A stretch of 64,000 nucleotides of DNA, from IMG/VR virus record IMGVR_UViG_3300010167_000010, positions 265,019-329,018 of that record; one strand, written 5' to 3'. The notes below the pieces were generated by a model. It had not been told where the DNA came from and ran no database searches. It saw nothing but the letters and a program-made list of their open reading frames with translations. Position numbers and translations under genes: made by a program. Each line of letters starts with the position of its first letter. The stretch's first letter is position 1. Of the stretch, positions 40,575 to 57,348 are shown in pieces. This DNA comes from a virus. Lineage: Duplodnaviria > Caudoviricetes.

Positions 40575-40616
40575 ACAAGTAAAGGATTACTTGTCTACAG
40601 AATATACAAGGAGGTA
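40575..40616 (+). promoter_or_regulatory. CsrA-type translational operator
   Basis: Perfect stem ACAAGTAA/TTACTTGT with AGGA loop (40575-40594) and a second ACAAGGAGGT site over the SD. Confidence 0.7.
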
Positions 40617-40619
40617 TAT

Positions 40620-40709
40620 ATGAGAATAAATAGCGTTCCGGCGTTATTTGCCCAACGTCAACTCGGGATAAATGAACTCGAGTTATCAAAACAAATGCAA
40701 CAGGATTAG
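40620..40709 (+). pseudogene. Flagellin N-terminal remnant, 29 aa (MRINSVPALFAQRQLGINELELSKQMQQD)
   Basis: Aligns with the FlaB N-terminus at 41474 (ALFAQR.LGIN..E.SKQ); ends before the HNH gene. Confidence 0.75.
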
Positions 40710-40731
40710 CACTTTCCCATAACTAATTATT

Positions 40732-41472
40732 ATGAATAAAAATAATTTTGTTAAAGATTATATGGAAATTATTAAAAGTGCTAAAAATAGAAAATATGAA
40801 GTTCATAAATATGAAAAGCACCATATATTACCAAAATCTTTATTTCCATTATGGACCAACAGAAAATCTAATTTAATTTTATTAACACCACGAGAACATA
40901 TTAAATGTCATAAATTATTAGCTTATATTTATGGAAAAAATATGTGGCATGCTTATTGGCAAATGGCTATAGATAAAAAAGATGGCCATAAACTAACACC
41001 AGAAGAATATGAAGAAGTTAGAATAGAACATTCTAAAAGAGTTTCAGAATTTAATAAGAAAAATAAAAAAAATCAAATTCCATGGAACAAAGGTAAAAAA
41101 GGTTTACAATTTTGTTCAGAAGAAACTAAAAAACTATTAAGTCATATAAACAGTGGTTCTAATAATGCCTTTTTTGGAAAAAAACATACTGAAGAAACTA
41201 AAAAAAATATAGGTGAAAAAAGAAAAGGTAAACCTGCGTGGAATTCTGGAAAAATTGGAATTTATTCAAATGAATATAGATATAAATGTGGAAATGGTTC
41301 TAGGGGTAGAAAAAATTCTATTGAAGAAATAGAAAGAAAAAGACTTAATTCCTTAGGAAAAATTTGGTGGACAAATGGTGAAGAAGACAAATTTAGTTTA
41401 ATTTGCCCTGAAGGTTATTGGAAAGGAAGATTAAAAGTTAAAGGATGGAAAAATAAAGTCAAGGAGGACTAA
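40732..41472 (+). mobile_element. HNH homing endonuclease with NUMOD3 repeats
   Basis: YEKHHILPK...NLILLTPREHIKCHKLL, PWNKGK, FGKKHTEETKK, WWTNG. Confidence 0.85.
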
Positions 41473-41473
41473 T

Positions 41474-42328
41474 ATGGTTATTAATAATAACTTAAGTGCA
41501 TTATTTGCACAACGGATGCTTGGAATAAACAACAAGGAAGTTTCCAAGCAATTAGAAAAATTAGCATCTGGTTTAAGAATAAACAGAGCTGCAGATGACA
41601 GCGCGAATTTAGCAGTATCTGAAAAGATGAGAGCTCAAATCCGCGGACTTCAACAAGCTTCAGCTAATACACAAAATGGTGTATCTTTTATTCAAACTAC
41701 AGAAGCACATCTTGTAAACACAACAGATATTTTACAACGTTTAAGAGAATTAGCAGTTCAAGCATCAAATGGAATTTATTCAGACGAAGATCGTTTAATG
41801 ATTCAAGTTGAAGTATCACAATTGGTTTCCGAAATTGATCGTATTGCAAGTCACGCTCAATTTAATGGGATGAATTTACTTACTGGTAGATTTGCTAGAC
41901 AAACTGGAACACAAGATATGTTTTTTCATGTTGGTGCAAACATGGATCAGCGCATTCAAGCTCATATTGGTGAAATGACAGCTCAAGCTCTTGGTATGCG
42001 AAATGAACAGGGCTCTAATGAAATTATCTCTTTAAGAGATACAGAATCATCAAATATGGCACTCGGTAGTATCGACGCCGCTCTTCGCATCGTCAACAAA
42101 CAACGAGCTGATTTAGGTGCATTGCAAAACAGAATGGAACATGCACAACGAGGTATCGACATCGCAAGAGAAAATCTACAAGCATCTGAAAGTAGAATTA
42201 GAGATGCAGACATGGCAGCAGAAACTACAAAATATGTCAAAGATCAAATTTTAATGCAAGCAGCTGTAGCAATGTTAAGCCATGCAAATGGAAACTCACA
42301 AAACGTATTACGACTTTTAGGTATGTAA
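41474..42328 (+). CDS. flaB: Spirochaete-type flagellar filament core protein FlaB
   Basis: [76 protein letters not shown]; 284 aa. Confidence 0.95.
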
Positions 42329-42333
42329 CAGAA

Positions 42334-42357
42334 AGTGGGGAGTTAATTCTCCCCACT
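42334..42357 (+). terminator. Stem-loop after flaB
   Basis: AGTGGGGAG-TTAAT-TCTCCCCACT inverted repeat; no clear U tail. Confidence 0.6.
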
Positions 42358-42365
42358 AATTATTT

Positions 42366-43043
42366 ATGAAAATTATTATTATAAGCGATATTCACGGTTC
42401 TGATAATTGGAAAAGAGTTATTCCATATAAAGATCAGTTTGATAAAATAGTTGTGCTTGGAGATGAATTTGATTCTTGGACTAATAAATGGCCTAATCAA
42501 ATGGATAATGCTTTAGATTTAATTAAATTTAAAACTCTTAATTCAGAAAAAGTAGATTTATGTTGGTCAAACCATGCAACAAGTTATTTTTTAAGAGAAC
42601 AGTGTAGTGGTTTTCAACCAGAACGTTTTATTGATATAAAAGAATTTTATGATAAAAATCAAAATTTGTATGATGCTATTTATATTTATGATAATTGGGT
42701 TTTCTCACATGCCGGTATTTCTAAAGCATGGATGAAATCTTGTGGAATAAAAAATATACGAAAAATAAATAGATTATTCAGAGAAAGACCAAATTATTTT
42801 AGATGGGTTGGGCCGAATGGTTATGGAGATAATGATAATGAAGGGCCGTTTTGGATTAGACCAATTTCATTATTAAAAAATAGTATTAAGAAATATCATC
42901 AATGTGTAGGACATACAGAAGGAAATGATCCAAGAATGCTAATACAAGATAAGCAAATATTTGTATTTGCCGATACTAAAAATCATGATTATTTTGTTAT
43001 TATTGATACAAATACTAATAATGTAGAGTTTGTTAATTTATAA
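42366..43043 (+). CDS. Metallophosphoesterase
   Basis: SDIHG, LGDEFD, SNHA, SHAG, GPFWIRP, QCVGHT. Confidence 0.85.
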   Translation: MKIIIISDIHGSDNWKRVIPYKDQFDKIVVLGDEFDSWTNKWPNQMDNALDLIKFKTLNSEKVDLCWSNHATSYFLREQCSGFQPERFIDIKEFYDKNQNLYDAIYIYDNWVFSHAGISKAWMKSCGIKNIRKINRLFRERPNYFRWVGPNGYGDNDNEGPFWIRPISLLKNSIKKYHQCVGHTEGNDPRMLIQDKQIFVFADTKNHDYFVIIDTNTNNVEFVNL

Positions 43044-43133
43044 ATAATTAAAAATGTTTGGATGTCAATAGTTTATTTATGGCGCCTCGGAGGAGTAATA
43101 AACTATTGACTAAATGCCAGTTAATTTATAATT

Positions 43134-43685
43134 ATGAATGTAGAAAATAAGAAAGTAAAAGCAGCAAAATTTGTTTTAGAAAATTGTGAAATTCTTTTAC
43201 TTAACTTAACTAATATAAAATATTATGACATAATAATTGGTAATTGTCATGAATCCTTTCATGTCCAACATGGTATTATGTTTTCTAGAAATAGTACCAA
43301 ATATCTTTCTCTAAAATTAGAGTGGCAACAATTTTATGATAATTTAGGTTATGATTTTGAGTTTGTTCCAGAAGAAGGTCATAATGAAGGAATTACTAAA
43401 GCTTATAAAAGATTTAAATATAAAGATATAACAGCTGTTTGTATTATTTTTGAAGATGATACGGAAATAGATATAGGAGTTCCTTGGAGAGGTGAATGGA
43501 AAAATAAAGCCCAATATATTAAAATACGAAAGGCAGACGAATATAGACCAGAAATGATAGAAATTACTTTCGATTATAATTATTATTGGAATGAATTTAT
43601 ATGGCAATTAAAATATGGAATAAAAATATCTATAAGTAACTTTTTTTATAGAATAAGTCAAATATTTAAGAGGAGAAAAATATGA
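43134..43685 (+). CDS. Hypothetical protein
   Basis: GTTAATTTA 14 nt upstream of ATG. Confidence 0.55.
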   Translation: MNVENKKVKAAKFVLENCEILLLNLTNIKYYDIIIGNCHESFHVQHGIMFSRNSTKYLSLKLEWQQFYDNLGYDFEFVPEEGHNEGITKAYKRFKYKDITAVCIIFEDDTEIDIGVPWRGEWKNKAQYIKIRKADEYRPEMIEITFDYNYYWNEFIWQLKYGIKISISNFFYRISQIFKRRKI

Positions 43686-43930
43686 CCGTACAAAAATTTA
43701 AGTACAAAGATGTTGACCGCGAAGTTTTGATTATTAAGGAAGACGCAGACTCTATTACTGGGTATGACCTTTCTAAATTGACAGAAGAAGAAAAAAAAGA
43801 AACTTGGAGAGTAGCAACTAAAGATATCGATTTATCTCAAATGACAGAAGAACAGGCAAAAGCTGAATACCAAAAGTGTAAAGAGATCCATGGAATCATT
43901 AGACGATTTAAGAAAAGTGCTATGAAATAA
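43682..43930 (+). CDS. Hypothetical protein
   Basis: GAGGAG SD. Confidence 0.55.
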   Translation: MTVQKFKYKDVDREVLIIKEDADSITGYDLSKLTEEEKKETWRVATKDIDLSQMTEEQAKAEYQKCKEIHGIIRRFKKSAMK

Positions 43931-43935
43931 TTATT

Positions 43936-44178
43936 GTGAATAGATTATACGATTTTCAGTTTAAACAAATAAATGACTCTATGTCTATTCAAGATATGAT
44001 TATACATTTAAATAATTTTCAAAATGCTGTTATTGAAGAAATTAGAGATTTAGAAGTTAAGATGTTAACTATTCCACCACCGCAAACTAATCCTTATATA
44101 AATCATTTAATGCAAGAAATAGAAAATTTAAAAGAAGAATTTAAAAGAGAAAGAAAACGTTGGGGACTTCTTGACTAA
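43936..44178 (+). CDS. Hypothetical coiled-coil protein
   Basis: ORF. Confidence 0.45.
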   Translation: MNRLYDFQFKQINDSMSIQDMIIHLNNFQNAVIEEIRDLEVKMLTIPPPQTNPYINHLMQEIENLKEEFKRERKRWGLLD

Positions 44179-44220
44179 TTTTTAGTGTCATTACTAACTA
44201 ATTATTAAGGAGAATATACA

Positions 44221-44703
44221 ATGGCAGATAGAAATGAATTACAAAAAATGCGCCAAGATATGTTAGACGTAGGTATTGTAGATCAAAATGGACATGTTAG
44301 AAGAAAGCCAGACGGTTCTGTTTTATTTCAAACAGATCAAGATGGAAAAGATACACCTTTTCAAGTAAGTAAGGCTGGAATAGTTCCACCTATTGAAAAA
44401 CTTGTTCCAAGAACTAGAGCTGTAAAAAGATCATTTGCAAGATACCCTCTCGATGCTCCTCATTCAATGGAAGCAATCGCAGAAGCAAATGGAGATAGAA
44501 ATAAATCACCATGGCTTAATATGACTAATTTTGCAAATAATCCACCACATGGCAAAGGCTCTGGAGATCCAGATACAAAAACACCAGATCCTGGTACAGG
44601 CGGAGGTTCTACAGGAACAACACCTAAATTATGCGAAGAGTGTGGAATAGGACATGTTGTAGATGATGAGTGTGATAATAATGATTGTCCTTCACATACT
44701 TAA
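44221..44703 (+). CDS. Hypothetical late protein with C-terminal Cys cluster
   Basis: ACTAATTATT plus AAGGAG; CEEC...CDNNDC. Confidence 0.55.
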   Translation: MADRNELQKMRQDMLDVGIVDQNGHVRRKPDGSVLFQTDQDGKDTPFQVSKAGIVPPIEKLVPRTRAVKRSFARYPLDAPHSMEAIAEANGDRNKSPWLNMTNFANNPPHGKGSGDPDTKTPDPGTGGGSTGTTPKLCEECGIGHVVDDECDNNDCPSHT

Positions 44704-44800
44704 ATAAATTTGTTAATATAAATAAAAGTTATACAAGATCAACTAAAGATTGCCTTAACCACAGCAGGAATTAAAGTTAGATACTTGAAAGGAGAATAAC

Positions 44801-45313
44801 ATGAGTAATAATTACTATGGTTTAAATGGTTTTAAAGATTTGTTCCAATTGATGGACGATATCTTTTCTACTGACGGATTTGCAACTATTTATGATAGAC
44901 AACCGCGATTTAACAGACTCATTTCTACCAGGGATTTCCCACCAGCAAATGTGTCAGTTAACAAAGAAACAAAGGAACTTTTAATAGAAGTTGCCTTAGC
45001 AGGATGTAACGAAGAGAACGTAAATCTTTCGTTTGATTCAGATTATCTTAAGTTAATTGTAGATGTACCTACAAAAGCTGAGATAGAACCACTTCATTTT
45101 ATTCAGAGAGGACTAAAGAAGATTCAACATATTGAAACTTCATGGATCGTAGATCATAGATTTTACGATAGAGATAATGTCAAAGTTGAATTTAATAATG
45201 GTCTATTAATGATACGAATTTTTCCTAAAGAGGAAGTTAGACCGAAGAAAATTAATCTTTTCGGTAAATATCAACCACAGGAAAAAGCTACTTTAGAACA
45301 TAAAACAGAGTAG
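44801..45313 (+). CDS. Small heat-shock protein (Hsp20)
   Basis: FPPANV, IEVALAG, IQRGL, FNNGLLMI. Confidence 0.88.
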   Translation: MSNNYYGLNGFKDLFQLMDDIFSTDGFATIYDRQPRFNRLISTRDFPPANVSVNKETKELLIEVALAGCNEENVNLSFDSDYLKLIVDVPTKAEIEPLHFIQRGLKKIQHIETSWIVDHRFYDRDNVKVEFNNGLLMIRIFPKEEVRPKKINLFGKYQPQEKATLEHKTE

Positions 45314-45353
45314 CAAATGATTACTAAGCTGTGGTAGTATAAAGGAGATAAAG

Positions 45354-45382
45354 AAAGGACGATAGAAATATCGTCCTTTTTT
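45354..45382 (+). terminator. Intrinsic terminator after hsp20
   Basis: AAAGGACGATA-GAAA-TATCGTCCTTTTTT. Confidence 0.8.
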
Positions 45383-45383
45383 A

Positions 45384-45650
45384 ATGGAAATTATGGAACA
45401 ACAAAATTTTAATAATTTACAAGACGCAATTTTAGAATTACGTGCTGAACTTGGATCTACAAAGAAAAATATAAAAGAAATTCTAACTATAGGTGAAGGA
45501 ACTATTATAGAACTTGACAAAAATGCTGATGAGCCAGTTACAATTTTTGTAAATAATATCAAATTTGCCGAAGGGGAAGTAGTAGCAGTAGACGAAAACT
45601 TTGGAATCCGTCTAACGAGGATTTTTTCACAAGCTGAAAGAAAAAGTTAA
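45384..45650 (+). CDS. fliN: FliN/FliY C-terminal (SpoA) domain protein
   Basis: LRAELGSTK..IKEIL.IGEGTIIELDKNADEPV.IFVN...FAEGEVVAVDENFGIRLT. Confidence 0.9.
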   Translation: MEIMEQQNFNNLQDAILELRAELGSTKKNIKEILTIGEGTIIELDKNADEPVTIFVNNIKFAEGEVVAVDENFGIRLTRIFSQAERKS

Positions 45651-45685
45651 TTTAACTAATTATATAGTAAATAATTTTACTTAGG

Positions 45686-47422
45686 ATGCTTATGAAAAAA
45701 ACTTTAAACATTGACTCCAATATATTTATCTTTATAAGATATTTTTCGTTTTCTATAGCCAGTGCTATATCTATTCTATTAAATATTTTCTTCTTTCAAG
45801 CTTTAGATACGGGCGGATATTATTGGATTCTTTTCGGCATTTCTATTTTGTTAGAATCAGCAAAAGTTTCTACTATTCTAACTAGAAATGTTTTCTCATC
45901 ATTATATATAAAATTACAGAAAAAACGTATACAATTAGCTAAATCATTCTTTTTATGTTTATACATTACTTTAGCTGTTTTATCTATAATGTCAGCTGCA
46001 GGATTTTCTTATTATGTTACCGAAACTACAGACACAATTAAAGAAATAGAAGTTGCAAATCTTCAAAATAAAATAGAAATTATGGAATCTATTCGAGATA
46101 GAATAGAATCATTTGCAGATGAAAGAGATGTTACTCTTTCAGAATATTCTCCATACATAAGAGCAAATGAATTTTTTGAAGAACGAAATCGAATATTTCT
46201 CGAAGCAAACGATAGGTGGACTAGACTCAATACTAGATTTAGATCTACTGACCCTGATGATGATTTATATTTACAATTACAAAGAGAAACTAACGCAGCT
46301 TGGACTGAACGAGCTAACTTAAACGTTCAAATGATTGCTGCTAGAGATGCTAGACAACGTGCAATAAATGAATTTAATGATAGAGGAACTAATGTAGAAG
46401 AAAGAATGAATGAATTAGATGCTGAATTTAATATGATGGTTAGAGAATTAGATTTAACAGCACCCGGTTTAGATTTACCACTTATTAGTAGAGCTAGATT
46501 AGTAACACGAGAACTCATTCAAGAATTGGGTTTATTAGAAGATAGAATATTAAAAGAAAAAGGTATGCAAATTATCTTTGACGATATGGGTGCATTATTT
46601 GGTATAGAACCAAAAATGATAAAACTTATCATTTTATTATTTGTTGCTATTTTAATAGAATTGACTATTTTCCAAACAGCTCCAGATATTAAAGTAAATA
46701 GAAAAGTATTATATTATTTTAGAAATTGGATTCCAAACGATGTAGATATAAATGAATTATTAGGAAAATTTGATAAAGAATTAGAAAGATTTGATGAAAA
46801 TTTTAAACCTGAAGAATCTCCAAAGCAATTTGAACAACAAGTTGTAATGCGAAAAAAGAGAATAAAAAGAGAAAAAATAATACAGCCAACACCGACTGTC
46901 ACTAATGTTACTCAACCATCAAATGAAAAAGAAACTCTTCCTTCTTTACCACCAGTCAGTAAAGAAAGATTAGAAAAATTTTTTAATGATGATGAAAAAA
47001 AAGAAGAAACAGAATATACAAAATCACTTCAAGAAGAATTACGAAATAAAGAAATTATTACTCCAGTTGAAGTAGTTCCTGAAACTATAAAAGTAAATAG
47101 AGTAAAAGTTGAACCAACTATTTATACTGATAATAAAACTATTAGATATCGTTTTGGAAGAACTACAGAAGTTATAGCAAATAAACTTTGTGATTTTATT
47201 AGATTATGTATAAATGAAGCTGGTCCTTTTATTCAATATCCAGAAAAAGCTGCAGAACAATTAGGGCTTTCAAGAAAAGCTAAAGATGTATTTTTAGAAC
47301 ACATGTCAAATTTAAAATTAAAATCAAAACCGTTAATTACTCGAAATCAATTAAATGAATATTATGCTAATTATTCAGCTGATGAAATAATAAAATATGC
47401 AACGGAAATAATTGATGAGTAG
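45686..47422 (+). CDS. Multi-TM membrane protein with long coiled coil
   Basis: Three N-terminal TMs, coiled coil, a further TM, cytoplasmic tail. Confidence 0.6.
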   Translation: MLMKKTLNIDSNIFIFIRYFSFSIASAISILLNIFFFQALDTGGYYWILFGISILLESAKVSTILTRNVFSSLYIKLQKKRIQLAKSFFLCLYITLAVLSIMSAAGFSYYVTETTDTIKEIEVANLQNKIEIMESIRDRIESFADERDVTLSEYSPYIRANEFFEERNRIFLEANDRWTRLNTRFRSTDPDDDLYLQLQRETNAAWTERANLNVQMIAARDARQRAINEFNDRGTNVEERMNELDAEFNMMVRELDLTAPGLDLPLISRARLVTRELIQELGLLEDRILKEKGMQIIFDDMGALFGIEPKMIKLIILLFVAILIELTIFQTAPDIKVNRKVLYYFRNWIPNDVDINELLGKFDKELERFDENFKPEESPKQFEQQVVMRKKRIKREKIIQPTPTVTNVTQPSNEKETLPSLPPVSKERLEKFFNDDEKKEETEYTKSLQEELRNKEIITPVEVVPETIKVNRVKVEPTIYTDNKTIRYRFGRTTEVIANKLCDFIRLCINEAGPFIQYPEKAAEQLGLSRKAKDVFLEHMSNLKLKSKPLITRNQLNEYYANYSADEIIKYATEIIDE

Positions 47423-47600
47423 AAAAATACAACATTCTATAACTAGTTATAGTAGTTTAAGTTTAAATCAATTATTAAAAATTAAAAAAAGGAAAATAGA
47501 ACAATTAGCTTATGCTAGGCAACATCATAATCTTCAATGTATAAAAAATATTTCTACTGAATTGATTATGATTGAAGATGTAATTAGAGAAAGAAGTTAA
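47412..47600 (+). CDS. Hypothetical protein
   Basis: Overlaps the previous stop. Confidence 0.4.
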   Translation: MMSRKIQHSITSYSSLSLNQLLKIKKRKIEQLAYARQHHNLQCIKNISTELIMIEDVIRERS

Positions 47601-47610
47601 TATAATTTAT

Positions 47611-48057
47611 ATGTTAAAAGCAGAAGACATGCTCAATATTATCAAAAGGGGCATAACGTATCAAAATAATTTAAACGATAGTTATTCTTATGTAAGTGTA
47701 GAAAATGAAATAAACTTATGTCCATTTTGTGGTAATAAAATGACAGTTGCAAAAAGTAATGGAAAATGGGTACAACTTTGTAATTGTAAAGAAGGAGTAG
47801 AATTTTGTTGTAAAATAAGAGATCTACTTATTGAAAAAGATAAAATAGAAAATGAATTATCTGATATATACGCAGATATAGAAAAAAGGGCTTTTATAGT
47901 TTTTAAAAATTATTATAAAGGTAATTTTATTCCTTATCTAGAAAAATTACAACAAATAGAAAATAAAATTATTTTAGAAATGCCTTTTTTAACTACAGAT
48001 GAAAATTTAATACAAAAAATGAGGGAAAAAATATTATGCCTGCAGGAAAACGAATAG
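47611..48057 (+). CDS. Zn-ribbon hypothetical protein
   Basis: CPFCG ... CNC. Confidence 0.55.
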   Translation: MLKAEDMLNIIKRGITYQNNLNDSYSYVSVENEINLCPFCGNKMTVAKSNGKWVQLCNCKEGVEFCCKIRDLLIEKDKIENELSDIYADIEKRAFIVFKNYYKGNFIPYLEKLQQIENKIILEMPFLTTDENLIQKMREKILCLQENE

Positions 48058-49703
48058 AGCGTTCTAAAACAGCTCGTGAACAAATTTTAAAAGGAATGTT
48101 AGAAGTATCTAAAACAGTTTCTTCAACATACGGCCCATGCGGTCGTACTGTTGGTTTTGATAGAGGAGGTTCTTTTAGAATTACTAAAGATGGAATTACA
48201 GTAGCTAGAGAAATAAAATTTTCTGACGAAGCTAAAAACTTTGGAGCAATGCTTATTAAAGAAGCTGCAGGTAAAAGTAATTATATAAGTGGAGACGGTA
48301 GTTCTTCTACAACTATTTTAACTGCTGAATTATGCGCGGCAGCTCATAATTTATTAAATCAAGGGATTGATATTAATGATTTACGAACTGGTTTTGAAGT
48401 AGCGGAAAAAGTAGTATTAGAATGTTTAGAAAAATATCAAACTATAATGAATAAAGAAGAAGATATTTTTAATATAGCAAAAATATCAGCTAATAACGAT
48501 GAAGAAATTGCAAAACATATTCAAGAAGCTTTTTTAGCAATTGGAGATAACGGTATAGTATCTATTGCTGATAGTTTATCTCGTAAAGGAGAAACTACAG
48601 TTAAAATATCTTCTGGTATAGAATTTGATAGAGGATTTTTATCATCACTTTGTGTAAATTCTACTAATGATCAATGTATTTTACATGATGCTAAATTTTT
48701 GTTATCTACTGATATATTAAATAGCCCACAAGATTTACATGTGCTTATTCAAATGGTGCAAATGAATAAATGGCCTTTAATTATTATTGCCCCAGACTTT
48801 GATGAAGAAGTAATGGCTTGGCATAGAGAAATGATTTCTAAAAAAATGTTAACAGGTTCATTAGTATTAGCACCTGGTGTATCTAAATTAAATATTGCAG
48901 ATAATTTATTAGATTTAGCTGTTTTAACTAATGCTACTATTTTAGGTCAAGATGTTTCTTTAAATGATTTTGATGTACATAATCATTTAGGTTCAGCAGA
49001 TCAAGTTGTAATCACTAAAGGGAAAACTACTATTTTGGGAGCAGGAACTAATCAAGAAAGATTTGATAAACATATAGAATTTTTACAAGCTAAAGTCGAT
49101 CATGATAGTGCTGAAATTGGTTATTCAGAATATGAATTACAAAATATAAAAGAAAGAATTGCTAAAATGACTGGTGGAGTCGCAACAATTTTTATTGGTT
49201 CTTTAACTTCAGTAGAATTAGGTGAAAAGAAAGATAGATATGAAGATGCAATAAATTCAGTTAGAGCAATGTTAAGTGAAGGATACATTCCAGGAGCATC
49301 AACCCCTTTATTAAGAATTTCGTATAATCAATTTAATTATTGTGACCAATTTAATTCAGAACAAATGAGTATTGGTTCACGAACATCATTTAAATCTTAT
49401 ATGAAAGCAATTAGAATACCATCACAAATTTTAATTAGATCTTCAGGTGAAGATTATGAAAATGTTGTTCAAGATATTTTAAAACTCAGTGATAATGAGG
49501 GTTTTAATGTTAAAAAAAGAAAAATAGAAAACTTAATAGATTCTGGAATAATAGATCCATATAAAATAATTTATAACTCAATATTATACGCATCTAATGT
49601 AGCTGAACAATTTATGGGTTTAGATTCTATTATAATTTCTGACGTACGAAACTTGTCAGTAGAATCTTTAGATGATATATTAAATGAAGATGGAGTAAGA
49701 TAA
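48036..49703 (+). CDS. groEL: Phage GroEL-like chaperonin
   Basis: TYGPCGR, ITKDGITVA, GDGSSSTT, GIEFDRGF, ERIAKMTGGVA, EKKDRYEDA, GIIDP. Confidence 0.92.
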   Translation: MPAGKRIERSKTAREQILKGMLEVSKTVSSTYGPCGRTVGFDRGGSFRITKDGITVAREIKFSDEAKNFGAMLIKEAAGKSNYISGDGSSSTTILTAELCAAAHNLLNQGIDINDLRTGFEVAEKVVLECLEKYQTIMNKEEDIFNIAKISANNDEEIAKHIQEAFLAIGDNGIVSIADSLSRKGETTVKISSGIEFDRGFLSSLCVNSTNDQCILHDAKFLLSTDILNSPQDLHVLIQMVQMNKWPLIIIAPDFDEEVMAWHREMISKKMLTGSLVLAPGVSKLNIADNLLDLAVLTNATILGQDVSLNDFDVHNHLGSADQVVITKGKTTILGAGTNQERFDKHIEFLQAKVDHDSAEIGYSEYELQNIKERIAKMTGGVATIFIGSLTSVELGEKKDRYEDAINSVRAMLSEGYIPGASTPLLRISYNQFNYCDQFNSEQMSIGSRTSFKSYMKAIRIPSQILIRSSGEDYENVVQDILKLSDNEGFNVKKRKIENLIDSGIIDPYKIIYNSILYASNVAEQFMGLDSIIISDVRNLSVESLDDILNEDGVR

Positions 49704-50188
49704 TGCCAACAGCAGACAAATTAGATTTTAATGAAATAGTAAAAAGAGGAAATGATAGATTTAGAAAAGAAAGACCAATGCCTTCTGAATTATATCAATG
49801 TGCAATATTTTTTAGTAGATTAGTTATGGAAGAAATAGATGAATTACAATCTATTAGACAAATTATAGAATTAAAAAAATGGGATAAAGAAAAGAAAATT
49901 TTTAATTTTTTTAATAATAATTTAAGAAATTTAATTCTACAATTAAATGAAGATTTAGAAAAACAACGATTTATATTTCCATTTTATAGTAAAGAGATAT
50001 TTATGTCACAACAAGAAGCTACAAATTTTCTTCCATTATTTATTAAACAACTTATTAAAGAAGAAAAACTTCCTGCAAGTGTAATAAATGAAGATAGATC
50101 TATAAATGAGGAAATTATTAAGCCGGCAATAATCCCATTACAAACTACAGTATTAGAACAAGATAGACCTGAGTTTAAAGATTCATAA
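49703..50188 (+). CDS. Hypothetical protein
   Basis: TAATG coupling to groEL. Confidence 0.5.
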   Translation: MPTADKLDFNEIVKRGNDRFRKERPMPSELYQCAIFFSRLVMEEIDELQSIRQIIELKKWDKEKKIFNFFNNNLRNLILQLNEDLEKQRFIFPFYSKEIFMSQQEATNFLPLFIKQLIKEEKLPASVINEDRSINEEIIKPAIIPLQTTVLEQDRPEFKDS

Positions 50189-50504
50189 CAGCATTTTCAT
50201 TTGAAATTTTATCTTTATATATTATAATTTCTTTATCTATATAAATATTTTTTGGAACTTCAATTCTTATTTCAACTGGAATTTCTTTTATAATTGGAAC
50301 TTCTTTAATTTTTTCAATATAGACAATATTACCTTTTATTTCTACAGGTACTTCTTTTATAACTTCAACTATTTTTTCTTGAATAGTTTTGATTTCTACA
50401 GGCACTTCAATAATCCGATCTATTTCTATCTCTTTTTCAATTATTTTAACTGAATTTTCTTCCCATCCTAAATATTTTAGTATACTTAATAAAAATTTTA
50501 TCAC
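50175..50504 (-). CDS. Small protein with (I/K)EVPVE repeats
   Basis: AAGGAG SD plus GTG start; repeated EVPVE/EIPVE. Confidence 0.6.
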   Translation of the reverse strand: MIKFLLSILKYLGWEENSVKIIEKEIEIDRIIEVPVEIKTIQEKIVEVIKEVPVEIKGNIVYIEKIKEVPIIKEIPVEIRIEVPKNIYIDKEIIIYKDKISNENAVMNL

Positions 50505-50585
50505 AATCTAACTCCTTAATAAATAGTTTGATTTTGAACATGTAATCTAAGTTTCTTATATAATATTTGTAAGGGAGATTATATT

Positions 50586-51386
50586 ATGACAAAGAGAACT
50601 TATACAACACATGAAGAGCAGCTTGCTGCTTTAGAACAGGAACTTGTAGAATTCAAGGTTGCATCTGATGCTTTCGGTTTGGAAAGATTAAATTGTTTGG
50701 AAGCAAATATTGCAATGTTTAATGAGTTTTTTGCTGGCCACAACGTTAATTTTCAACTCAAAAGAGTTAGCAAGGATTCCTATTTCGGTTCAAAGGATAA
50801 TGATCTTCGTTACGATTTTTGCTTCATGACTGATGCTGACGATAGTTGGGGTTCAGTTTCAGTTGAAGTTCTTTATTCTTCTGCACTTGGTCTTAGAGTT
50901 CACCGTTTTGGTTTGCCTTCCAGAAGTCACAGTGGAAAAGATTTAAATCTTGATAAAGATATTGCATTTTTCCAGAATATGACAAACTTGGCAAATATTT
51001 TGAAGAGCGGAACTGAATTAGCTGCTGTACTTGACCAGTGGAAAGAAGTTGAACGAACATGGCCTGAAAGAGATGAATATAAAATCACTTCTGATATAAA
51101 TGCTTGCAAGGAAAACATTCGCATTCTTAATTTGGGTTTTAGGGTTGGAGCAACTTTAATGGTTGATACTAATACTTCAAAAAAATATAGAAATCATTGG
51201 CAGAAAGCTACAATCGTAAAGATTAATGCAAAATCTGTTCACTATGTAATTCATTGGGATCGTGAAGATGGAACTACTTCTACTTCTGATGTTCGCAAAA
51301 CTTGGATGGACTTTAATTATTTCAGAACAATTGAAGAGCATGCCAGAATAATTGAAGAGAAAAAAGCAGGTAGAAGAAACTACTAA
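50586..51386 (+). CDS. Hypothetical early protein
   Basis: Class I promoter, AAGGGAG SD, terminator. Confidence 0.65.
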   Translation: MTKRTYTTHEEQLAALEQELVEFKVASDAFGLERLNCLEANIAMFNEFFAGHNVNFQLKRVSKDSYFGSKDNDLRYDFCFMTDADDSWGSVSVEVLYSSALGLRVHRFGLPSRSHSGKDLNLDKDIAFFQNMTNLANILKSGTELAAVLDQWKEVERTWPERDEYKITSDINACKENIRILNLGFRVGATLMVDTNTSKKYRNHWQKATIVKINAKSVHYVIHWDREDGTTSTSDVRKTWMDFNYFRTIEEHARIIEEKKAGRRNY

Positions 51387-51433
51387 AACAACCTCCCTTA
51401 CGGGTTCAGTCGTTGGCTAAACCCGTTTAATAT

Positions 51434-51457
51434 AAGCTCCCGAAAGGGAGCTTTTTT
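51434..51457 (+). terminator. Intrinsic terminator
   Basis: AAGCTCCC-GAAA-GGGAGCTTTTTT. Confidence 0.85.
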
Positions 51458-51485
51458 ATTGTAAAAAACTTACTAAATATATAAT

Positions 51486-53738
51486 ATGAGAAGTGATGAT
51501 AAAGCTGGCTCTATTATTGTCAATCCCTTTACTGTTGATATAGATAAATTGGAAGGCCAGAAAATAGATGAAGGATTATTAAAATATACATTTAAAGATG
51601 AAAAAGCTATAAATAATTTAGCTTATATAATGAAAGATATTTTATCTGGTGATGTTTCATTAGCTAGAAGAGAAGAATATGCATATCTTAATTTTAAACA
51701 ATTACAAGAAGCAATAAAGTTTTTATTAAGTACTGGTATTGATGATTCACTCCGTCAATTACTTTTAGAACGACCTTATTTATTAACGTTTAAAGATAAA
51801 CCACCAACAGCAGAAGAATTTTTAGGTGAAAAATATATTGGAGTTATGAGCGAATCAGTTTGGGTTCCAGTTAAAAAAGCTTTTATAGAATATTTAGATC
51901 CATTAAAACCATATAGAACAGCTGCATTAAATCCATCAATTGGTGCTGGAAAATCTACATTTACTATGTTAGTATTATTGTATGTTGCAGTTTGTTTTGC
52001 ACTTATGAGAGATCCTTGGAAGTTTTTTAGTATGTCTCCAACATCAGTATTTGTATTTGTATTGTGTGCTGTTACACAATCTAAAGCATCTGAAATTTAT
52101 CTTGAGCCAATTCAGCAATTAATAGAATCTGCAACTTATTGGAAATTTTGTAGAGATCACCAAGCAATGATTCGTGAGGATAATCATTTAAGACAATCTG
52201 ATTATGTAAATTATATTCCTTGGACAACATCTAGTAAAACATCTGTATTACAAACTGGAAATGGATTAAATTGGAAACAAATATCGTCTGCTGGTTCTCT
52301 TTTAGGTATGAATATTTTAGTCGGTGCAATGACAGAAATTACATTCTTTCTTGAAGCAGGAAAAGGTTGGAATGGAGAAAAGCTTATGGGCTTCTTCTCT
52401 AAACTTCGACAAAGAATTAGCAACCGTTTTCAAAATAATTATTATGCTCGTTTTATATTAGATTCATCACCATCATCGTTAGAAGATCCAATTCAAAGTT
52501 GGATGACATATGATGCTCCTAATAATAGTGCTAATTTTGTTTGGAAGGGGAGTAGATGGAATTTATATCCAGAAGAATTTCCAGATTTTTGTAACATAGA
52601 AGATTTACATGGATTAAATGAAAAAATAACTGAAAATCATAATTTTGATGTTGGATTTAAATTATTTAAAGGTGGTAATGGTAAAATACCTCAAATATGT
52701 GAAACAGATAGCGAAGCAGCTATTTTTGAAGAAGCTGATACTATATGGTGCCCAATTAAACAAGTAACTAAAAAGGGAACAGAAAACTTTTTAGATAAAG
52801 CAAAAGAAAACCCAATAGAGTTTATGAAAAATATAGCAGGAATTCCTGCTGGTCAAGCTGATCGTATTTTTTATCAAGGACATTGGATAGATGATTGTTT
52901 TGATAATGGCTTAAAAAATGTTTATGGGAGTATAGTTGCTTTAGCTCATGAAGAACCAGAACATCTTATTTGGAATCAAATTTATAATTTATTTTTTAAT
53001 AAAATATTAGATAGATGGTATTATTATTATGAGCCAGATCTTCCTAGAGTAATTTCAGTTGACTTATCAAAATCAAAAGATTGTACTTGTATTGCTATGA
53101 GCCACGTTGAAAGAGATCCAACTAGAATAGATCCATTAACTGGACAATCGGTAATAGTTTATGTTACTGATTTTACTATTATGTTAGTTCCAAAAGGTGG
53201 TTTAATAAATTTAGATGCAGTTAAATTTTTTATTCTCGATTTACGTAAATTAGGTGGATTAAATATTAGACACGTTTCATTTGACGGATATCAATCTGAA
53301 TCAACTAAACAAGCATTAAAAAGAATGAATTTTACTGTAGATTATATTTCAGTTGATAGTAATAATGAATCATATTATACTTATATAGACTTAGTAACTA
53401 AAAATAGATGGTTTTGTGGAAAAAATATATTCGTTAAAAATAATATGAAATCATTATATCATACTAAACGTAAACGAAGTGAATCTATGAAAATTGAACA
53501 CTTTCCAGGTGATTTAAATTATGATTGGCAAGGAGGAGATTGGATAACTTGTACTGCTGGTATTAATGCTAAGGATGCTACCGATGCTATCGCTGGTAAC
53601 ATAGAATTAATGAAGATGTATTCAGGTGAATTTATTCCATCAAAAATATGGAACCCACAAGCTTGTTTTGATAGAGATTACGATAATGTTTTTCAAAAAA
53701 ATAAAGATTTTCTTAAAAGTGTAAATTTACGCTATTAA
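51486..53738 (+). CDS. terL: Terminase large subunit
   Basis: SIGAGKST Walker A, AMTEI Walker B-like, LDSSP coupling motif, RNase H-like SVDLSKSKDCT, VSFDGYQS, KDATDAIA. Confidence 0.85.
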   Translation: MRSDDKAGSIIVNPFTVDIDKLEGQKIDEGLLKYTFKDEKAINNLAYIMKDILSGDVSLARREEYAYLNFKQLQEAIKFLLSTGIDDSLRQLLLERPYLLTFKDKPPTAEEFLGEKYIGVMSESVWVPVKKAFIEYLDPLKPYRTAALNPSIGAGKSTFTMLVLLYVAVCFALMRDPWKFFSMSPTSVFVFVLCAVTQSKASEIYLEPIQQLIESATYWKFCRDHQAMIREDNHLRQSDYVNYIPWTTSSKTSVLQTGNGLNWKQISSAGSLLGMNILVGAMTEITFFLEAGKGWNGEKLMGFFSKLRQRISNRFQNNYYARFILDSSPSSLEDPIQSWMTYDAPNNSANFVWKGSRWNLYPEEFPDFCNIEDLHGLNEKITENHNFDVGFKLFKGGNGKIPQICETDSEAAIFEEADTIWCPIKQVTKKGTENFLDKAKENPIEFMKNIAGIPAGQADRIFYQGHWIDDCFDNGLKNVYGSIVALAHEEPEHLIWNQIYNLFFNKILDRWYYYYEPDLPRVISVDLSKSKDCTCIAMSHVERDPTRIDPLTGQSVIVYVTDFTIMLVPKGGLINLDAVKFFILDLRKLGGLNIRHVSFDGYQSESTKQALKRMNFTVDYISVDSNNESYYTYIDLVTKNRWFCGKNIFVKNNMKSLYHTKRKRSESMKIEHFPGDLNYDWQGGDWITCTAGINAKDATDAIAGNIELMKMYSGEFIPSKIWNPQACFDRDYDNVFQKNKDFLKSVNLRY

Positions 53739-53858
53739 ATAACTAATTTATTAAGAGAATTGCTTCACGCTCTTTGGATTCGTATCATATTACGCCTAAA
53801 AGAAAGATTAAAATATCTAATATGTATAACGTGAAAGACTTAATATAGGAGAAAATTT

Positions 53859-55214
53859 ATGAAGAAAACATTTGTAGACCTAGTAAAGGAATACAGCGCC
53901 TGGAAATTACAAGAAAAAGGCAACGGTAAGCTTACCAGAGAAGAACTCACAAAGCTTAGAGAATCTTATAAAGCAACAACAGAAAAACAATCTGCTCTTA
54001 AAGAAAAAGTAGAAGAGTACAGAGCTTGGAAGAAAGAAAATAAGGGAACAGATAAAATTACTGAAAAAGAATTTAAAGCCCTTAGAGAATCCGTAATTAA
54101 AGAAAGTAAAAAAATAAATAATAAAGAACCACAACAAAATTGGGAAACTTATCTTTCTAATTACAAAAAATTTAAAGAAGGTAAAGAAGGCGAAGGTGCA
54201 AAAATTACTTATAAAGAATTAAAAATGCTTAAAGAAAATTGGAAGGAAGCAAGAGAAAAAGGTATTCATCTTAAAGAAGGTGATCCAGCTAATGCCGGTT
54301 TTGATCCAACAGGAGATCCAAATGCAATGCCTCCAGTTGAAGGAGCAGTTCCAGGAGCTGATATGGGAATGCCAGATCCAGCAGGCGGACAAACTGTTTC
54401 TGATATGGCAGCAGCTATTTCTGCAGCAGTTCAACCATTTATGGCAGATGCAGGGGCAATGGCACCAGTAGGAGATCCATTAGGTGCTCCTCCAGCAGGA
54501 ACAGATGCAGGACCAGTAACAGGAATGCCTCCAGCTGATCCAGCAGCACCACTTCAATCAAGTGAAAAACGTGGTGATAGATCAGGTAGATTATTTGAAC
54601 AATTAACAAATGATTATAAAGCTTGGAAAAAAGCAAATAAAGGAACTGATAAACTCACTGAAGCTGAAGTTGCAGCATTAAAAGAAGAAGCAGAAAAACA
54701 AAGTGCACCAGCACCAAAATCAAAATACGAACAAATTAAAGAAAGAATTGCAGCTAGACAAGCAGCAATTGAAGAACTTCAAGAAAACAGTATGGGCCCG
54801 CTTCCAACAGCTGCCCTTGCTAACTCAAAATTATGGAAACATAATAAGGGAAATAGCACAGGTGAAACACAAAAAACAGCTCCAGCAGCTCCATCACAAA
54901 TTGAAAAAGTTCCATCACCACAAACTTTAGCAAATGGTTATAGTTCAGGTGCAGCAGCAGGTGAAACATCACCAGCAAAAACATGGCCAACAAAATCAAT
55001 GGGTAAGGAAGCAGGTGGAGCACTTCAAGGTGCAAATGCAAAACAAATGAAAGAAAATGCAGAAGAAACAGAAACTGATTTAACTCAAGTAAAAGAAAGT
55101 GTTGTAGATAATTCAGTAAAAACAGTAACAGATGTTTATGTAGATAGATATTTTGAACCAAAACTTGACTTCGGAAAACTTAAGGAATCAATGAAGAAAG
55201 GCCTTTTAGGTTAA
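53859..55214 (+). CDS. Prohead core/scaffold-like protein
   Basis: Four repeats of Y.AWK..K.G..K.T..E...L[RK]E; many LKE/LRE; Pro/Ala/Gly linker. Confidence 0.55.
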   Translation: MKKTFVDLVKEYSAWKLQEKGNGKLTREELTKLRESYKATTEKQSALKEKVEEYRAWKKENKGTDKITEKEFKALRESVIKESKKINNKEPQQNWETYLSNYKKFKEGKEGEGAKITYKELKMLKENWKEAREKGIHLKEGDPANAGFDPTGDPNAMPPVEGAVPGADMGMPDPAGGQTVSDMAAAISAAVQPFMADAGAMAPVGDPLGAPPAGTDAGPVTGMPPADPAAPLQSSEKRGDRSGRLFEQLTNDYKAWKKANKGTDKLTEAEVAALKEEAEKQSAPAPKSKYEQIKERIAARQAAIEELQENSMGPLPTAALANSKLWKHNKGNSTGETQKTAPAAPSQIEKVPSPQTLANGYSSGAAAGETSPAKTWPTKSMGKEAGGALQGANAKQMKENAEETETDLTQVKESVVDNSVKTVTDVYVDRYFEPKLDFGKLKESMKKGLLG

Positions 55215-55225
55215 GGGGGTTAAAA

Positions 55226-55810
55226 ATGAGAAAGCTTAAAGAAGAAGCAATCACCCTTTTTGATACTGGAGATCAAAGAAGTTTTAATGAACTTTATGAA
55301 GGACAAGAGCATCTCTTTACTGATGTTGATGATTTGATTAGTCCAAAATTTAAAAAACTTTTTGAAGAAACTTATCAAGTTGGTAATATTCAACAAAAAC
55401 AAACTTTAAGAGAATGCGATGTTAAATACGGAAATGCAAATGGTTTTCAAGAACTCGATAATAGAAATGATGGTGTTCCAGAAGGACATAATAGGTCTTT
55501 AGCACCAGCTGGTGGTTCTAGTCCAAAAGTTAGACAATCTACACCTAATTATAGTACAAACAAACCATTATATGAAATGTTTGAACGTATTTATGAAGAT
55601 GTAAGTGGTCCTCCAGGTGGTCATTATGATAGTGGGAAAGGTAGTCCAAAACCATCAAATGACGGAGTACCTAGCGAAATTAATGGAAGTGCATTAAGTA
55701 AAGGACCTGCTAGTTCAATAGTACAATCAGGTGCTAGACAAGATGATAATTCACAATTAGGTAATGAACCAGCAATGGGACATGGGGCAGGCCCGAAAGC
55801 TCAAAGATAA
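55226..55810 (+). CDS. Putative internal head protein
   Basis: LKE/LRE, FEETYQ/FERIYE, repeated NDGVP. Confidence 0.5.
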   Translation: MRKLKEEAITLFDTGDQRSFNELYEGQEHLFTDVDDLISPKFKKLFEETYQVGNIQQKQTLRECDVKYGNANGFQELDNRNDGVPEGHNRSLAPAGGSSPKVRQSTPNYSTNKPLYEMFERIYEDVSGPPGGHYDSGKGSPKPSNDGVPSEINGSALSKGPASSIVQSGARQDDNSQLGNEPAMGHGAGPKAQR

Positions 55811-55835
55811 GTTACGAATATTGTAGTTAAATAAT

Positions 55836-55860
55836 AGCCCCTGATTTTCAGGGGCTTTTT
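55836..55860 (+). terminator. Intrinsic terminator
   Basis: AGCCCCTGA-TTT-TCAGGGGCTTTTT. Confidence 0.85.
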
Positions 55861-55883
55861 ATTGTTAATATAACTTAAAAATT

Positions 55884-56264
55884 ATGACTCAAAAAGAAAA
55901 AAAGAAAATAGCTAAATCATTGGCTTTACCAATGGAAGACATAAGATATACAGAAGTGTTAAGCCAAGAAGAAATAGATCAACTTTTAACAGCAATTAAT
56001 GGTGATGAAGAATCTCCTAAAAATTTTAATAAAACACGAAAAAATACTCCAAAAATAGACTATATTTTTGATCAACATACAAAAATCAACTCTGAATTCT
56101 CAAAAGAAGCTAAAAATAATATTCTTTTATTAGAGGCTAAACTTAAGAAAACATATAAAGTTTTTTTAGAGACAACAAAAGAATTACAAAAAGAGTTAGA
56201 ACAATTAAAAGCCGAAAATGAAAGAATTAGAAAAATTATTAGAACTGCAGAATTATTCGATTAA
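55884..56264 (+). CDS. Protein with FliM-like CheY-binding peptide, coiled coil and ELFD tail
   Basis: TEVLSQEEIDQLLTAI matches the spirochaete FliM N-terminus. Confidence 0.7.
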   Translation: MTQKEKKKIAKSLALPMEDIRYTEVLSQEEIDQLLTAINGDEESPKNFNKTRKNTPKIDYIFDQHTKINSEFSKEAKNNILLLEAKLKKTYKVFLETTKELQKELEQLKAENERIRKIIRTAELFD

Positions 56265-56305: not shown

Positions 56306-56821
56306 ATGGAAATAATAACAGGTAATTATACCAAATTAGCTATTATTGAATGTTCTGTTTGTAGAGAAAATCATACATTAGAATTAATTTATGACCATGA
56401 CGATATGACAGTTTGGTTCGAAATGATGCCACAATCTTTTCCTTTTTCATTAAAATTAAAACATTGGTTTCTTTTTAAATTTTATCCAGAATTATTCACT
56501 TTAGGTTATTATAGACAATTTTTTAGTATAGCTTTAACAAATAATCAAATAATCAAAATTATAGAAGTATTAGAAAAAGTTGGTTATAAATCTAGAAGTT
56601 CATATTTATCTCAAAATTATGTTAACTTTATCGAATATTTTGATGTAAATGGTGTTATGATTAGTAAAGATAAAGATTTAGACCATATAGATTTATCTAT
56701 TCATGCTGTTGAAAAAACAGAATTAAATTGGAGACGAACTACTGGCGCGTGGGAAGCTGGTTTATCTAAAGAAGATACAGAAATATTTATTGGTACTCTA
56801 AGAAGTTTAGTTTATGAATAA
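56306..56821 (+). CDS. Hypothetical protein
   Basis: Class I promoter; CSVC..H. Confidence 0.55.
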   Translation: MEIITGNYTKLAIIECSVCRENHTLELIYDHDDMTVWFEMMPQSFPFSLKLKHWFLFKFYPELFTLGYYRQFFSIALTNNQIIKIIEVLEKVGYKSRSSYLSQNYVNFIEYFDVNGVMISKDKDLDHIDLSIHAVEKTELNWRRTTGAWEAGLSKEDTEIFIGTLRSLVYE

Positions 56822-56990
56822 AAAACCAAATCCACCATGGTGTCATTGTGAATATCATGAACATTTATATGAAAATGAGAAACCTAATTATTGGAATAAC
56901 GATTTAAGTGAGCCAATATGCGTTGGACATTTAAATAGAGATAAATGTAATTTTAGAAAAAAATTAAAAGAATGTGAATTATTTGATTAA
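56814..56990 (+). CDS. Cys/His-rich 58-aa protein ending CELFD (not in ORF track)
   Basis: MNKKPNPPWCHCEYH...KECELFD*. Confidence 0.65.
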   Translation: MNKKPNPPWCHCEYHEHLYENEKPNYWNNDLSEPICVGHLNRDKCNFRKKLKECELFD

Positions 56991-57000
56991 GGAGTAAAAA

Positions 57001-57348
57001 ATGACAATCAATAACCCATTTATTAAAGACAAGGATAACATTAAGTGGCTCGAAGATAATTATGAAACATTTTTAGATTATATGGCCAAACATCATTCAT
57101 TAGCAGATTGTTGGCATACCATTTTAGATTTATCAACGTTTGATGATAAATATATTTCTAATATGATAACTAAAGTTACTGCGGCTGATAATAAAAAAAT
57201 TAAAGAAGCTGCTGCTAGAAAAAGAAAACTTGGTGGAAAGAAAACAAATACAAAATCTACAACAATAGAAAAAAAGCAAAGCTTAATTGAAGAAGCAATA
57301 GAAGAAAAAAAAAGGAAATCAAAAGAAGAAGATGAGCTTCTGGACTAA
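57001..57348 (+). CDS. Hypothetical protein ending ELLD
   Basis: AAGGAG SD. Confidence 0.6.
   Translation: MTINNPFIKDKDNIKWLEDNYETFLDYMAKHHSLADCWHTILDLSTFDDKYISNMITKVTAADNKKIKEAAARKRKLGGKKTNTKSTTIEKKQSLIEEAIEEKKRKSKEEDELLD

Follow-up and report, generated by a model that had tools for sequence, protein, structure and literature searches.

A jumbo phage, probably of Treponema-like spirochaetes, carries flagellar switch, filament and predicted CheY-docking genes

The phage genes described so far as reshaping the flagellum concern the filament (prophage flagellin) and, as annotation, the stators only. The temperate Flagellin Remodeling prophage FRphi of Enterobacter encodes a flagellin isoform together with the RNA-guided repressor TldR (PMC13418256), and a viral contig from glacier ice harbors motA and motB auxiliary genes that were read as supporting host motility (PMC8290583). 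In the literature reachable to us, mostly outside subscription journals, no report was found of phage FliG, FliM, FliN or CheY-peptide proteins or of motility genes in jumbo phages, and two surveys of jumbo phages leave flagellar genes unmentioned. Here we analyze a stretch of 64,000 nucleotides (hereafter the window; positions 265,019 to 329,018 of the IMG/VR record IMGVR_UViG_3300010167_000010) that encodes a spirochaete-type core flagellin (FlaB), a stand-alone FliN domain and a small protein bearing a FliM-type peptide predicted to dock phosphorylated CheY (CheY-P).

We put the probability slightly above one half, at about 55%, that the record represents a jumbo phage of Treponema-like spirochaetes in which selected, host-derived auxiliary genes jointly take over the flagellar switch and the chemotaxis output. 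The initial annotation had singled out the three parts in the window, all of which proved real; the set was nevertheless incomplete, as the genome also encodes FliG and a FliM::FliN fusion. The C-ring set (FliG, FliM and FliN) is complete over the whole phage genome, and all interface motifs checked are intact. The flagellar genes lie at two loci about 270 kb apart and are as follows:

41474..42328, plus strand: full-length spirochaete-type core flagellin FlaB, 284 aa (Flagellin_N E 2.9e-40, Flagellin_C E 5.9e-24)
45384..45650, plus strand: stand-alone FliN SpoA domain, 88 aa (FliMN_C E 3.1e-23, no other domain)
55884..56264, plus strand: predicted CheY-docking-peptide protein, 126 aa (basic N-terminus, FliM-type peptide, disordered linker, long helix, C-terminal ELFD)
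55950..55997, plus strand: FliM-type putative CheY-P docking peptide of that protein, TEVLSQEEIDQLLTAI, residues 23-38, from the translation
56250..56261, plus strand: C-terminal ELFD tag of that protein, whose Leu 124 is the sole invariant family residue outside the peptide
C1:32167-33381 (C1, the whole contig), in a tRNA island: FliG with full N, M and C domains (Pfam E 7.6e-27, 2.5e-27 and 3.7e-42)
C1:33374-34771, overlapping fliG: FliM::FliN fusion, 465 aa (FliM E 2.9e-75, its own weak SpoA, and a strong FliN domain, E 2.5e-26)

A single contig of 329,018 bp with a GC content of 28.5%, whose first and last 123 bases are identical, ends with the window. This IMG/VR record with direct terminal repeats has a CheckV completeness estimate of 100% and 22 tRNA genes. 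Within the window are also encoded rIIA (phrog_612, E 5e-85), a T4-type RNA ligase, Hsp20, DnaB and the two following proteins:

48036..49703, plus strand: phage GroEL (Cpn60_TCP1 E 4.4e-48; phrog_5725 E 8e-101)
51486..53738, plus strand: large terminase subunit, 750 aa (tblastn against annotated Vibrio phage terminase large subunits, E down to 7e-17)

Given the terminal repeats, the completeness estimate, the tRNAs, rIIA, the RNA ligase, GroEL and the terminase, the setting of the window is a complete jumbo phage rather than a host fragment. The initial annotation had placed the motility parts among phage genes, with a phage-type AT-rich codon usage and outside any flagellar operon, and each of these points holds. 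The terminase, GroEL, a NUMOD3-type homing endonuclease, rIIA and the T4 RNA ligase attest the phage neighborhood. The GC content at third codon positions (GC3) of the flagellar genes is 0.10-0.21 (FlaB 0.21, FliN 0.16, peptide-protein gene 0.13) against a median of 0.12 for the phage genes (5-95% range 0.08-0.21), whereas the spirochaete homologues range from 0.37 to 0.91, except for the AT-rich Brachyspira (0.19). They do not make up an operon and are motility parts of host origin that have become fixed in the phage genome.

Orthologues of the flagellar parts are present in at least three other phage contigs. Phage B, represented by a 57.5-kb IMG/VR record, a 261-kb JGI contig and a 328,413-bp ENA contig, has a terminase 76% identical to that of the window and a FlaB 68% identical, at a different genome position; it also harbors a peptide protein (P0125) and, in the 328-kb contig, a FliM::FliN (P0126). 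In phage C, an 86.6-kb IMG/VR record, the gene order Hsp20-FliN-...-GroEL-terminase is conserved, the FliN is 63-65% identical, and a peptide protein (L009) lies just downstream. The search of related jumbo phages suggested along with the initial annotation therefore recovered FlaB and the peptide protein in phage B, and FliN and the peptide protein in phage C. Complete viral genome, matching composition and conservation in related viruses, by which viral residence was judged, are all found for the flagellar genes.

The claim of a full FlaB stands, since both flagellin domains exceed the curated cut-offs (PF00669, 138 bits against 26.6; PF00700, 84.7 bits against 23) and the protein groups with spirochaete FlaB. 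Its best 120 matches are spirochaete flagellins of 279-297 aa with 64-74% identity, belonging, where named, to Treponemataceae, Termitinemataceae and Spirochaetia, and it corresponds to the short form (around 286 aa) without the variable middle domain. A quick maximum-likelihood tree places the FlaBs from phage-like contexts in one separate clade (SH-aLRT 96) beside the cellular FlaBs. The nonsynonymous divergence (dN) of FlaB is 0.27 between the present phage (phage A) and phage B, and 0.23 against P0007, for a synonymous divergence (dS) of at least 1.7, and the corresponding dN/dS pairs are 0.19/1.43 for the terminase and 0.29/1.21 for GroEL, all these dN/dS values being rough because dS is saturated in all phage-phage comparisons. 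For FlaB, dN lies far below dS, away from the dN/dS near 1 that would have spoken against a selected function. The constraint on phage FlaB is about that of the terminase, which indicates purifying selection. Distant or fragmentary matches only were obtained when GenBank phages were searched for flagellin.

The immediate surroundings of flaB bear the mark of a mobile element:

40620..40709, plus strand: open reading frame (ORF) of 29 aa preceded by a strong Shine-Dalgarno site; what is left of a flagellin N-terminus (60% identity with FlaB over 25 aa)
40732..41472, plus strand: free-standing NUMOD3-type homing endonuclease (Pfam NUMOD3 E 1e-10), separated from the flaB start codon by 1 nt
42334..42357, plus strand: terminator-like hairpin directly 3' of flaB (9-bp stem, 6 GC pairs; by consensus match alone)

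The 29-aa ORF aligns with FlaB residues 5-29 (BLASTP, 60% identity, E 6e-9) and is 58% identical to the FlaB of phage B. It looks like the remnant left upstream when the free-standing endonuclease invaded the 5' end of flaB, and an endonuclease at this place fits a gene common among co-infecting relatives. A hidden Markov model (HMM) of FlaB run over all ORFs of at least 40 aa in the genome had FlaB as its sole match, with no second flagellin; a mini-flagellin besides FlaB was thereby ruled out, the 29-aa N-terminal remnant being all that is present. A group I intron around the endonuclease was also considered, and no Rfam match of any kind was obtained between positions 38000 and 58000.

The FliN/FliY SpoA domain was likewise rightly described as isolated. 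It scores 81.9 bits with PF01052 (cut-off 23.8), is 58% identical to the C-terminus of the 388-aa FliY of the spirochaete locus L011, and shares 13 invariant columns with spirochaete FliY C-termini. Spirochaete FliY proteins, 348-388 aa long, combine an N-terminal docking peptide, a CheC-like middle part and SpoA, an architecture that phage FliN does not have. An 11-bp hairpin (window 45354-45379), placed after a Shine-Dalgarno-like AAGGAG and before the start codon of fliN, either terminates the Hsp20 gene or folds and splits the ribosome-binding site.

The switch proteins encoded at the other locus are well preserved. Phage FliG retains EHPQ, the GG linker, MFIFEDIV (the MFxF motif) and the charged residues R/ED/K of the torque helix (SKRAEAMLKEDMIYMGPLKLKD against the host-type SKRAASMLKEDMEYMGPIRLKD). 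Phage FliM retains the FliG-binding GGXG loop as GGTG, and its middle domain is about 75% identical to that of the 343-aa Treponema FliM. Moreover, its residues 5-16 (YVLDQDDIDDLV) form one docking-type motif and a second (TEVLSAKEIDELLKAI) starts at residue 36, and the closest FliM::FliN fusions, including that of phage B, have such tandem motifs as well. Eight spirochaete loci were compared with the phage over the genes, not identified one by one, that lie up to 10 kb from fliM; of these, FliG, FliM and the FliY C-terminus alone have phage homologues. No FliW, FliS, CsrA or PilZ was found in the phage genome, nor any export-gate, FliH/I/J or chaperone genes; the suggestion that FlaB might act as a decoy for FliW finds no support, as neither FliW nor CsrA or FliS is encoded.

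The FliM::FliN architecture is not confined to this phage. Around 90 proteins of 404-504 aa were present among the top 120 matches of the fusion protein, and a FliM tree unites all fusions in a single clade (SH-aLRT 99) whose sister is the canonical 343-aa Treponema FliM and within which phage and chromosomal copies are interleaved. Two contexts are plainly bacterial, namely an orphan fliG-fliM::fliN pair beside fatty-acid synthesis genes in a 270-kb contig (L035:8963-11242) and a contig of Treponema sp. R8-4-B8 (L034:10001-11278). Two others are plainly phage-like: a 183-kb contig where FliM::FliN and the adjoining FliG are accompanied by genes for a T4-type RNA ligase (RnlA) and a primase, and, in another phage lineage, a locus (L037:7792-15521) where FliM::FliN and a FliG of 535 aa are flanked by a terminase-like gene and by a gene with a faint Portal_T4 match. 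Because the copies interleave within the clade and occur in both contexts, the tree points to a fliG/fliM::fliN cassette that moves between huge phages and Treponema chromosomes. The fusion gene of L035 has a GC content of 0.39, below that of its surroundings (0.45). One more candidate relative (L018:506-2665 and 6977-7720), in a Spirochaetales metagenome-assembled genome, encodes an 80-aa FliN, a 638-aa FliM-FliG(M,C) fusion and an extra FliG_C protein; it was rejected as a phage relative, the locus being bacterial, and corresponds to a bacterial accessory switch module adjoining AraC and histidine-kinase genes.

The 126-aa protein matches no Pfam family. Its peptide is of the FliM type, since it matches the start of FliM at the nearest spirochaete locus, L011 (MTEVLSQDEIDQLLTAINAG), and not that of FliY at the same loci (DGSLTQDEIDALL). 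Fifteen of 16 residues are identical to the L011 FliM N-terminus, and 17 of 18 over TEVLSQEEIDQLLTAING; the pattern LSQxEIDxLL is present in both (TEVLSQEEIDQLLTAI against MTEVLSQDEIDQLLTAI in spirochaete FliM). Lacking the FliM middle domain (PF02154) and the C-terminal SpoA, the protein is, as judged from its sequence, not a FliM and bears the FliM N-peptide. The initial annotation had this peptide grafted onto an unrelated protein. The peptide is indeed there, but the first 68 or so aligned residues are still FliM-like: by blastp, residues 23-90 align to residues 2-68 of spirochaete FliM (E 6e-6 to 5e-5), as though a shortened 5' part of fliM had acquired a new tail. The rest of the protein forms a long helix, and the tag at its C-terminus recurs across the genome.

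A profile of the three phage homologues (phage A, P0125 and L009), searched against 1.84 billion representatives, gave 88 matches, with at least 12 full-length clusters of 92-150 aa, one of which has ClpS and T4 RNA ligase genes on the same, phage-like contig. Fourteen family sequences, 23-37% identical to the query, were aligned: L26, Q28, E30, I31, D32 and L35 of the peptide and L124 of the tag are invariant, and S27, L34, A37 and I38 nearly so; one member has a FliY-type peptide instead. The protein evolves faster than FlaB, terminase and GroEL (dN 0.62-0.63, dS 1.3-1.6). A single-protein pattern scan of IMG/VR returned no relatives of the peptide protein or of FliM::FliN, which were found via related records and protein searches.

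AlphaFold2, run with the family alignment, predicts a helix at residues 28-38, a low-confidence linker at 42-52 and a single 56-residue helix at 70-125 (pLDDT 84-96). A complex of residues 14-62 with CheY of T. pallidum was predicted with weak support, scoring 0.50 against 0.00 for the best control, in a benchmark that brought 58 of 80 solved complexes to the mark, along with 2 of 110 mismatched pairs, and where scores of 0.60 or less comprised only 7 of the 80 solved complexes and both mismatched pairs that passed. The partner pLDDT is at least 51, and runs agree in at least 75% of contacts. Because solved complexes of CheY with FliM peptides exist, this prediction speaks for likeness rather than for binding.

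Upstream of the gene lies one further element:

55836..55856, plus strand: terminator-like hairpin between the peptide-protein gene and the upstream gene, followed by the promoter-like motif GTTAATATAA

The motif GTTAATwT, enriched upstream of genes, stands 20 nt before the ATG of the peptide-protein gene. Further proteins of 70-103 aa (P0255, P0256, P0260, P0266, P0268, P0290, P0302, P0304, P0307, P0326; L040:4832-5143) consist of two or three tandem CheY-docking peptides of the LSQDEINQLL type. The one readable context among them, beside mnmE, is bacterial, and these proteins may be cellular CheY-P buffers.

The C-terminus of the peptide protein belongs to a set of endings of the form [DE]L[FL][DE]. 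Twenty of the 443 non-overlapping ORFs of the genome end in LFD (14 of them in ELFD), against about 0.24 expected from the internal frequency of LFD, and a further six end in LLD and two in LFE. The carriers, around 28 and mostly small proteins, are spread across the phage genome, and those in the window include:

12875-13729: tag-bearing ORF
43936-44178: tag-bearing ORF
56814-56990: tag-bearing ORF
57001-57348: tag-bearing ORF
57332-57688: tag-bearing ORF
57691-57903: tag-bearing ORF
61311-61676: tag-bearing ORF
61673-61897: tag-bearing ORF
61894-62082: tag-bearing ORF

The codons of the tag vary among copies (GAA/GAG, CTC/CTT/TTG/TTA, TTT/TTC, GAT/GAC), and the constraint is therefore on the peptide and not on the DNA. 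In phage B loci the tag ends 5 of 75 ORFs; the 67 ORFs of three bacterial loci were without it. It probably serves its carriers as a common signal for docking or turnover.

Some other genes and signals of the genome deserve mention. A sensor diguanylate cyclase with two transmembrane segments and an intact GGEEF (C1:28284-29441; L005:4285-5442) lies 3 kb upstream of phage fliG. A hybrid histidine kinase (C1:164185-166020; L033:1474-3309, minus strand) comprises dCache, HisKA, HATPase and receiver (REC) domains. As this is the only receiver domain of the genome, a stand-alone CheY in the phage was rejected. A full eukaryote-type topoisomerase IB, with N-terminal, core and C-terminal Pfam domains, is encoded at window 8256-9959. 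About 50 genes, those of the terminase and of homing endonucleases among them, have the motif ACTAAwTA 10-14 nt ahead of their start codon, for example in the window at:

40722-40729: ACTAAwTA motif
42355-42362: ACTAAwTA motif
51472-51479: ACTAAwTA motif

GTTAATwT precedes around 57 genes, including that of the peptide protein. The two motifs probably represent two promoter classes, several of which would leave little or no leader; a scan with the sigma-70 consensus performed no better on the genome than on shuffles.

How these parts might act together can be proposed from their conserved features. FliG, FliM::FliN and FliN would assemble into, or exchange into, the host C-ring, and FlaB, both termini of which are conserved, would be exported into the periplasmic filament; motors would therefore stay functional through a long infection, but be specified by the phage. 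The 126-aa protein would pair via its long helix and could present FliM-type peptides to CheY-P, whose capture would withdraw or redirect the switching signal. The ELFD tag would tie it to a hub or turnover route common to around 28 other small phage proteins. By analogy with Borrelia, where CheY3-P binds FliM and cheY3 mutants run constantly (10.1101/2020.05.18.101634), the loss of the CheY-P signal would be expected to lead to persistent, non-chemotactic running. A second FliG paralogue and c-di-GMP enzymes have been implicated in rotation bias in the same genus (10.1101/2020.05.18.101634), and by the same analogy a phage with its own switch, extra CheY-docking sites and c-di-GMP synthesis would be well placed to fix the swimming mode. 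The initial annotation had seen decoys and subunits in the window. The parts are host-derived, as it supposed, but the intact EHPQ, MFxF and torque residues of FliG and the GGXG loop of FliM fit assembly-competent subunits better than decoys. Its further suggestion, that flagellotropic competitors might be excluded, appears unlikely for spirochaete flagella, which are periplasmic.

A different use of the same genes would be dominant-negative interference, with poison subunits and a pure decoy peptide that jam the motor and so save proton-motive force or ATP, or immobilize the cell. We regard this as unlikely, though with real points in its favor: the extra C-terminal tails of the phage FliGs adjoin the stator-facing domain, and the stand-alone FliN has neither the CheC-like domain nor the N-peptide of FliY. 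Against it, every checkable interface motif is intact, FlaB is conserved over its whole length at a terminase-like constraint that a blocker would not need, and a full three-protein ring kit would be a costly way to stop a motor. Because all interface motifs tested are intact, we favor a working, re-tuned motor combined with a damped CheY-P signal over a jammed one. Several observations nevertheless weigh against our interpretation. Phage FliG has a tail of about 45 aa right after the torque domain, the FliG of another phage has about 110 extra residues at the same place, and such tails could act as a brake; the own docking motif of phage FliM has diverged (LSAKEIDELL). Tails and diverged motif together leave the jammed motor some probability as a reading. 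FliM::FliN and FliG pairs of the same clade occur in bacterial chromosomes too, and the fusion is therefore not a phage invention. The host is inferred from protein similarity alone, and the effect may be to maintain, re-tune or block motility. Finally, in model species free FliM peptides bind CheY-P at micromolar affinity only, and nothing short of strong expression or avidity would make a sponge effective.

An equally tentative reading is that the peptide proteins are two-ended adaptors, one end docking CheY-P or a different CheY-like receiver and the tag end plugging into a hub of the phage or host, such as a protease, chaperone or localization factor. If so, the phage would degrade, relocate or read out the host chemotaxis signal, and with the C-ring, the diguanylate cyclase and the Cache-type hybrid kinase it would steer the cell by a sensory-motor pathway of its own. 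It is less probable still that the genes serve something other than swimming, the C-ring acting as a sorting platform for flagellar type III export, or FlaB and the ring proteins entering a phage-specific structure. FliN and FliM are docking sites for the export ATPase complex, and in L037 the pair lies in what is apparently a structural or late module; the phage, however, has no export-gate, FliH/I/J or chaperone genes, the torque residues of FliG are retained, and the CheY-docking peptides come in three forms (two in tandem on FliM and one on a stand-alone protein), which indicates the chemotaxis signal and not export. That the genes are passenger DNA, captured recently from the host and functionless, or the product of a host/phage mis-assembly, is very improbable and largely refuted. 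The genome is metagenome-derived and the homing endonuclease beside flaB marks a mobile locus, but the contig is closed by terminal repeats with flagellar genes at two distant loci, their GC3 is fully phage-like, unlike that of the spirochaete homologues other than Brachyspira, orthologues with dN far below dS recur in related phages, and the docking peptide stays constant in a family that has diverged elsewhere. The chimera that had been named as the chief danger to the initial annotation is countered by the same closed genome, codon usage and orthologues.

If the proposed take-over is true, motility and chemotaxis would rank with photosynthesis or nucleotide metabolism among the functions that viruses take over. 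What is new here is a lytic-type huge phage with a whole rotor switch, a filament core and a dedicated, predicted CheY-docking protein, common to its relatives. The two-motif FliM::FliN fusion, the FliGs tailed near the stator interface and the portable, predicted CheY-P binder are potential reagents for motor research, and the genome-wide C-terminal tag points to a new docking system for small phage proteins.

Several known systems share features with this set. The canonical spirochaete FliM, FliY and FliG2 (motA-motB-fliL-fliM-fliY operon) have the same domains and motifs, the M and C domains of FliG being near-identical in motifs, but in the phage FliM is fused to FliN and has two docking motifs, FliN is without the CheC-like part, FliG is tailed, and the other operon members are absent. 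The orphan fliG and fliM::fliN pairs of Treponema chromosomes (L035, L034) belong to the same fusion clade as the phage pair (SH-aLRT 99); unlike the phage copy, the chromosomal fusions miss the first docking motif and have no phage neighbors. Structures of CheY-P with the FliM N-terminal peptide are established for E. coli and T. maritima, and the phage protein resembles them in its LSQxEIDxLL, modeled as a helix, although the peptide is carried there by a small, helical, tagged protein and not by a motor protein. T4-like phages have free-standing homing endonucleases (seg/mob genes), which the NUMOD3 endonuclease recalls in that it borders a conserved gene on its 5' side and has left a duplicated gene fragment behind; the difference is the target, here a flagellin gene. 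FRphi is similar in that a phage-borne flagellin alters the composition and behavior of the host flagellum (PMC13418256), but it supplies the filament protein only, to which the spirochaete phage adds FliG, FliM::FliN, FliN and the putative CheY-docking protein, and it has TldR, which was not seen beside flaB in the 329-kb phage. The glacier-ice contig likewise has flagellar motor genes on viral DNA (PMC8290583), but these encode stators on a short contig, whereas the spirochaete phage encodes rotor and switch proteins, the filament and the predicted signal-docking protein in a closed genome, with orthologues in its relatives.

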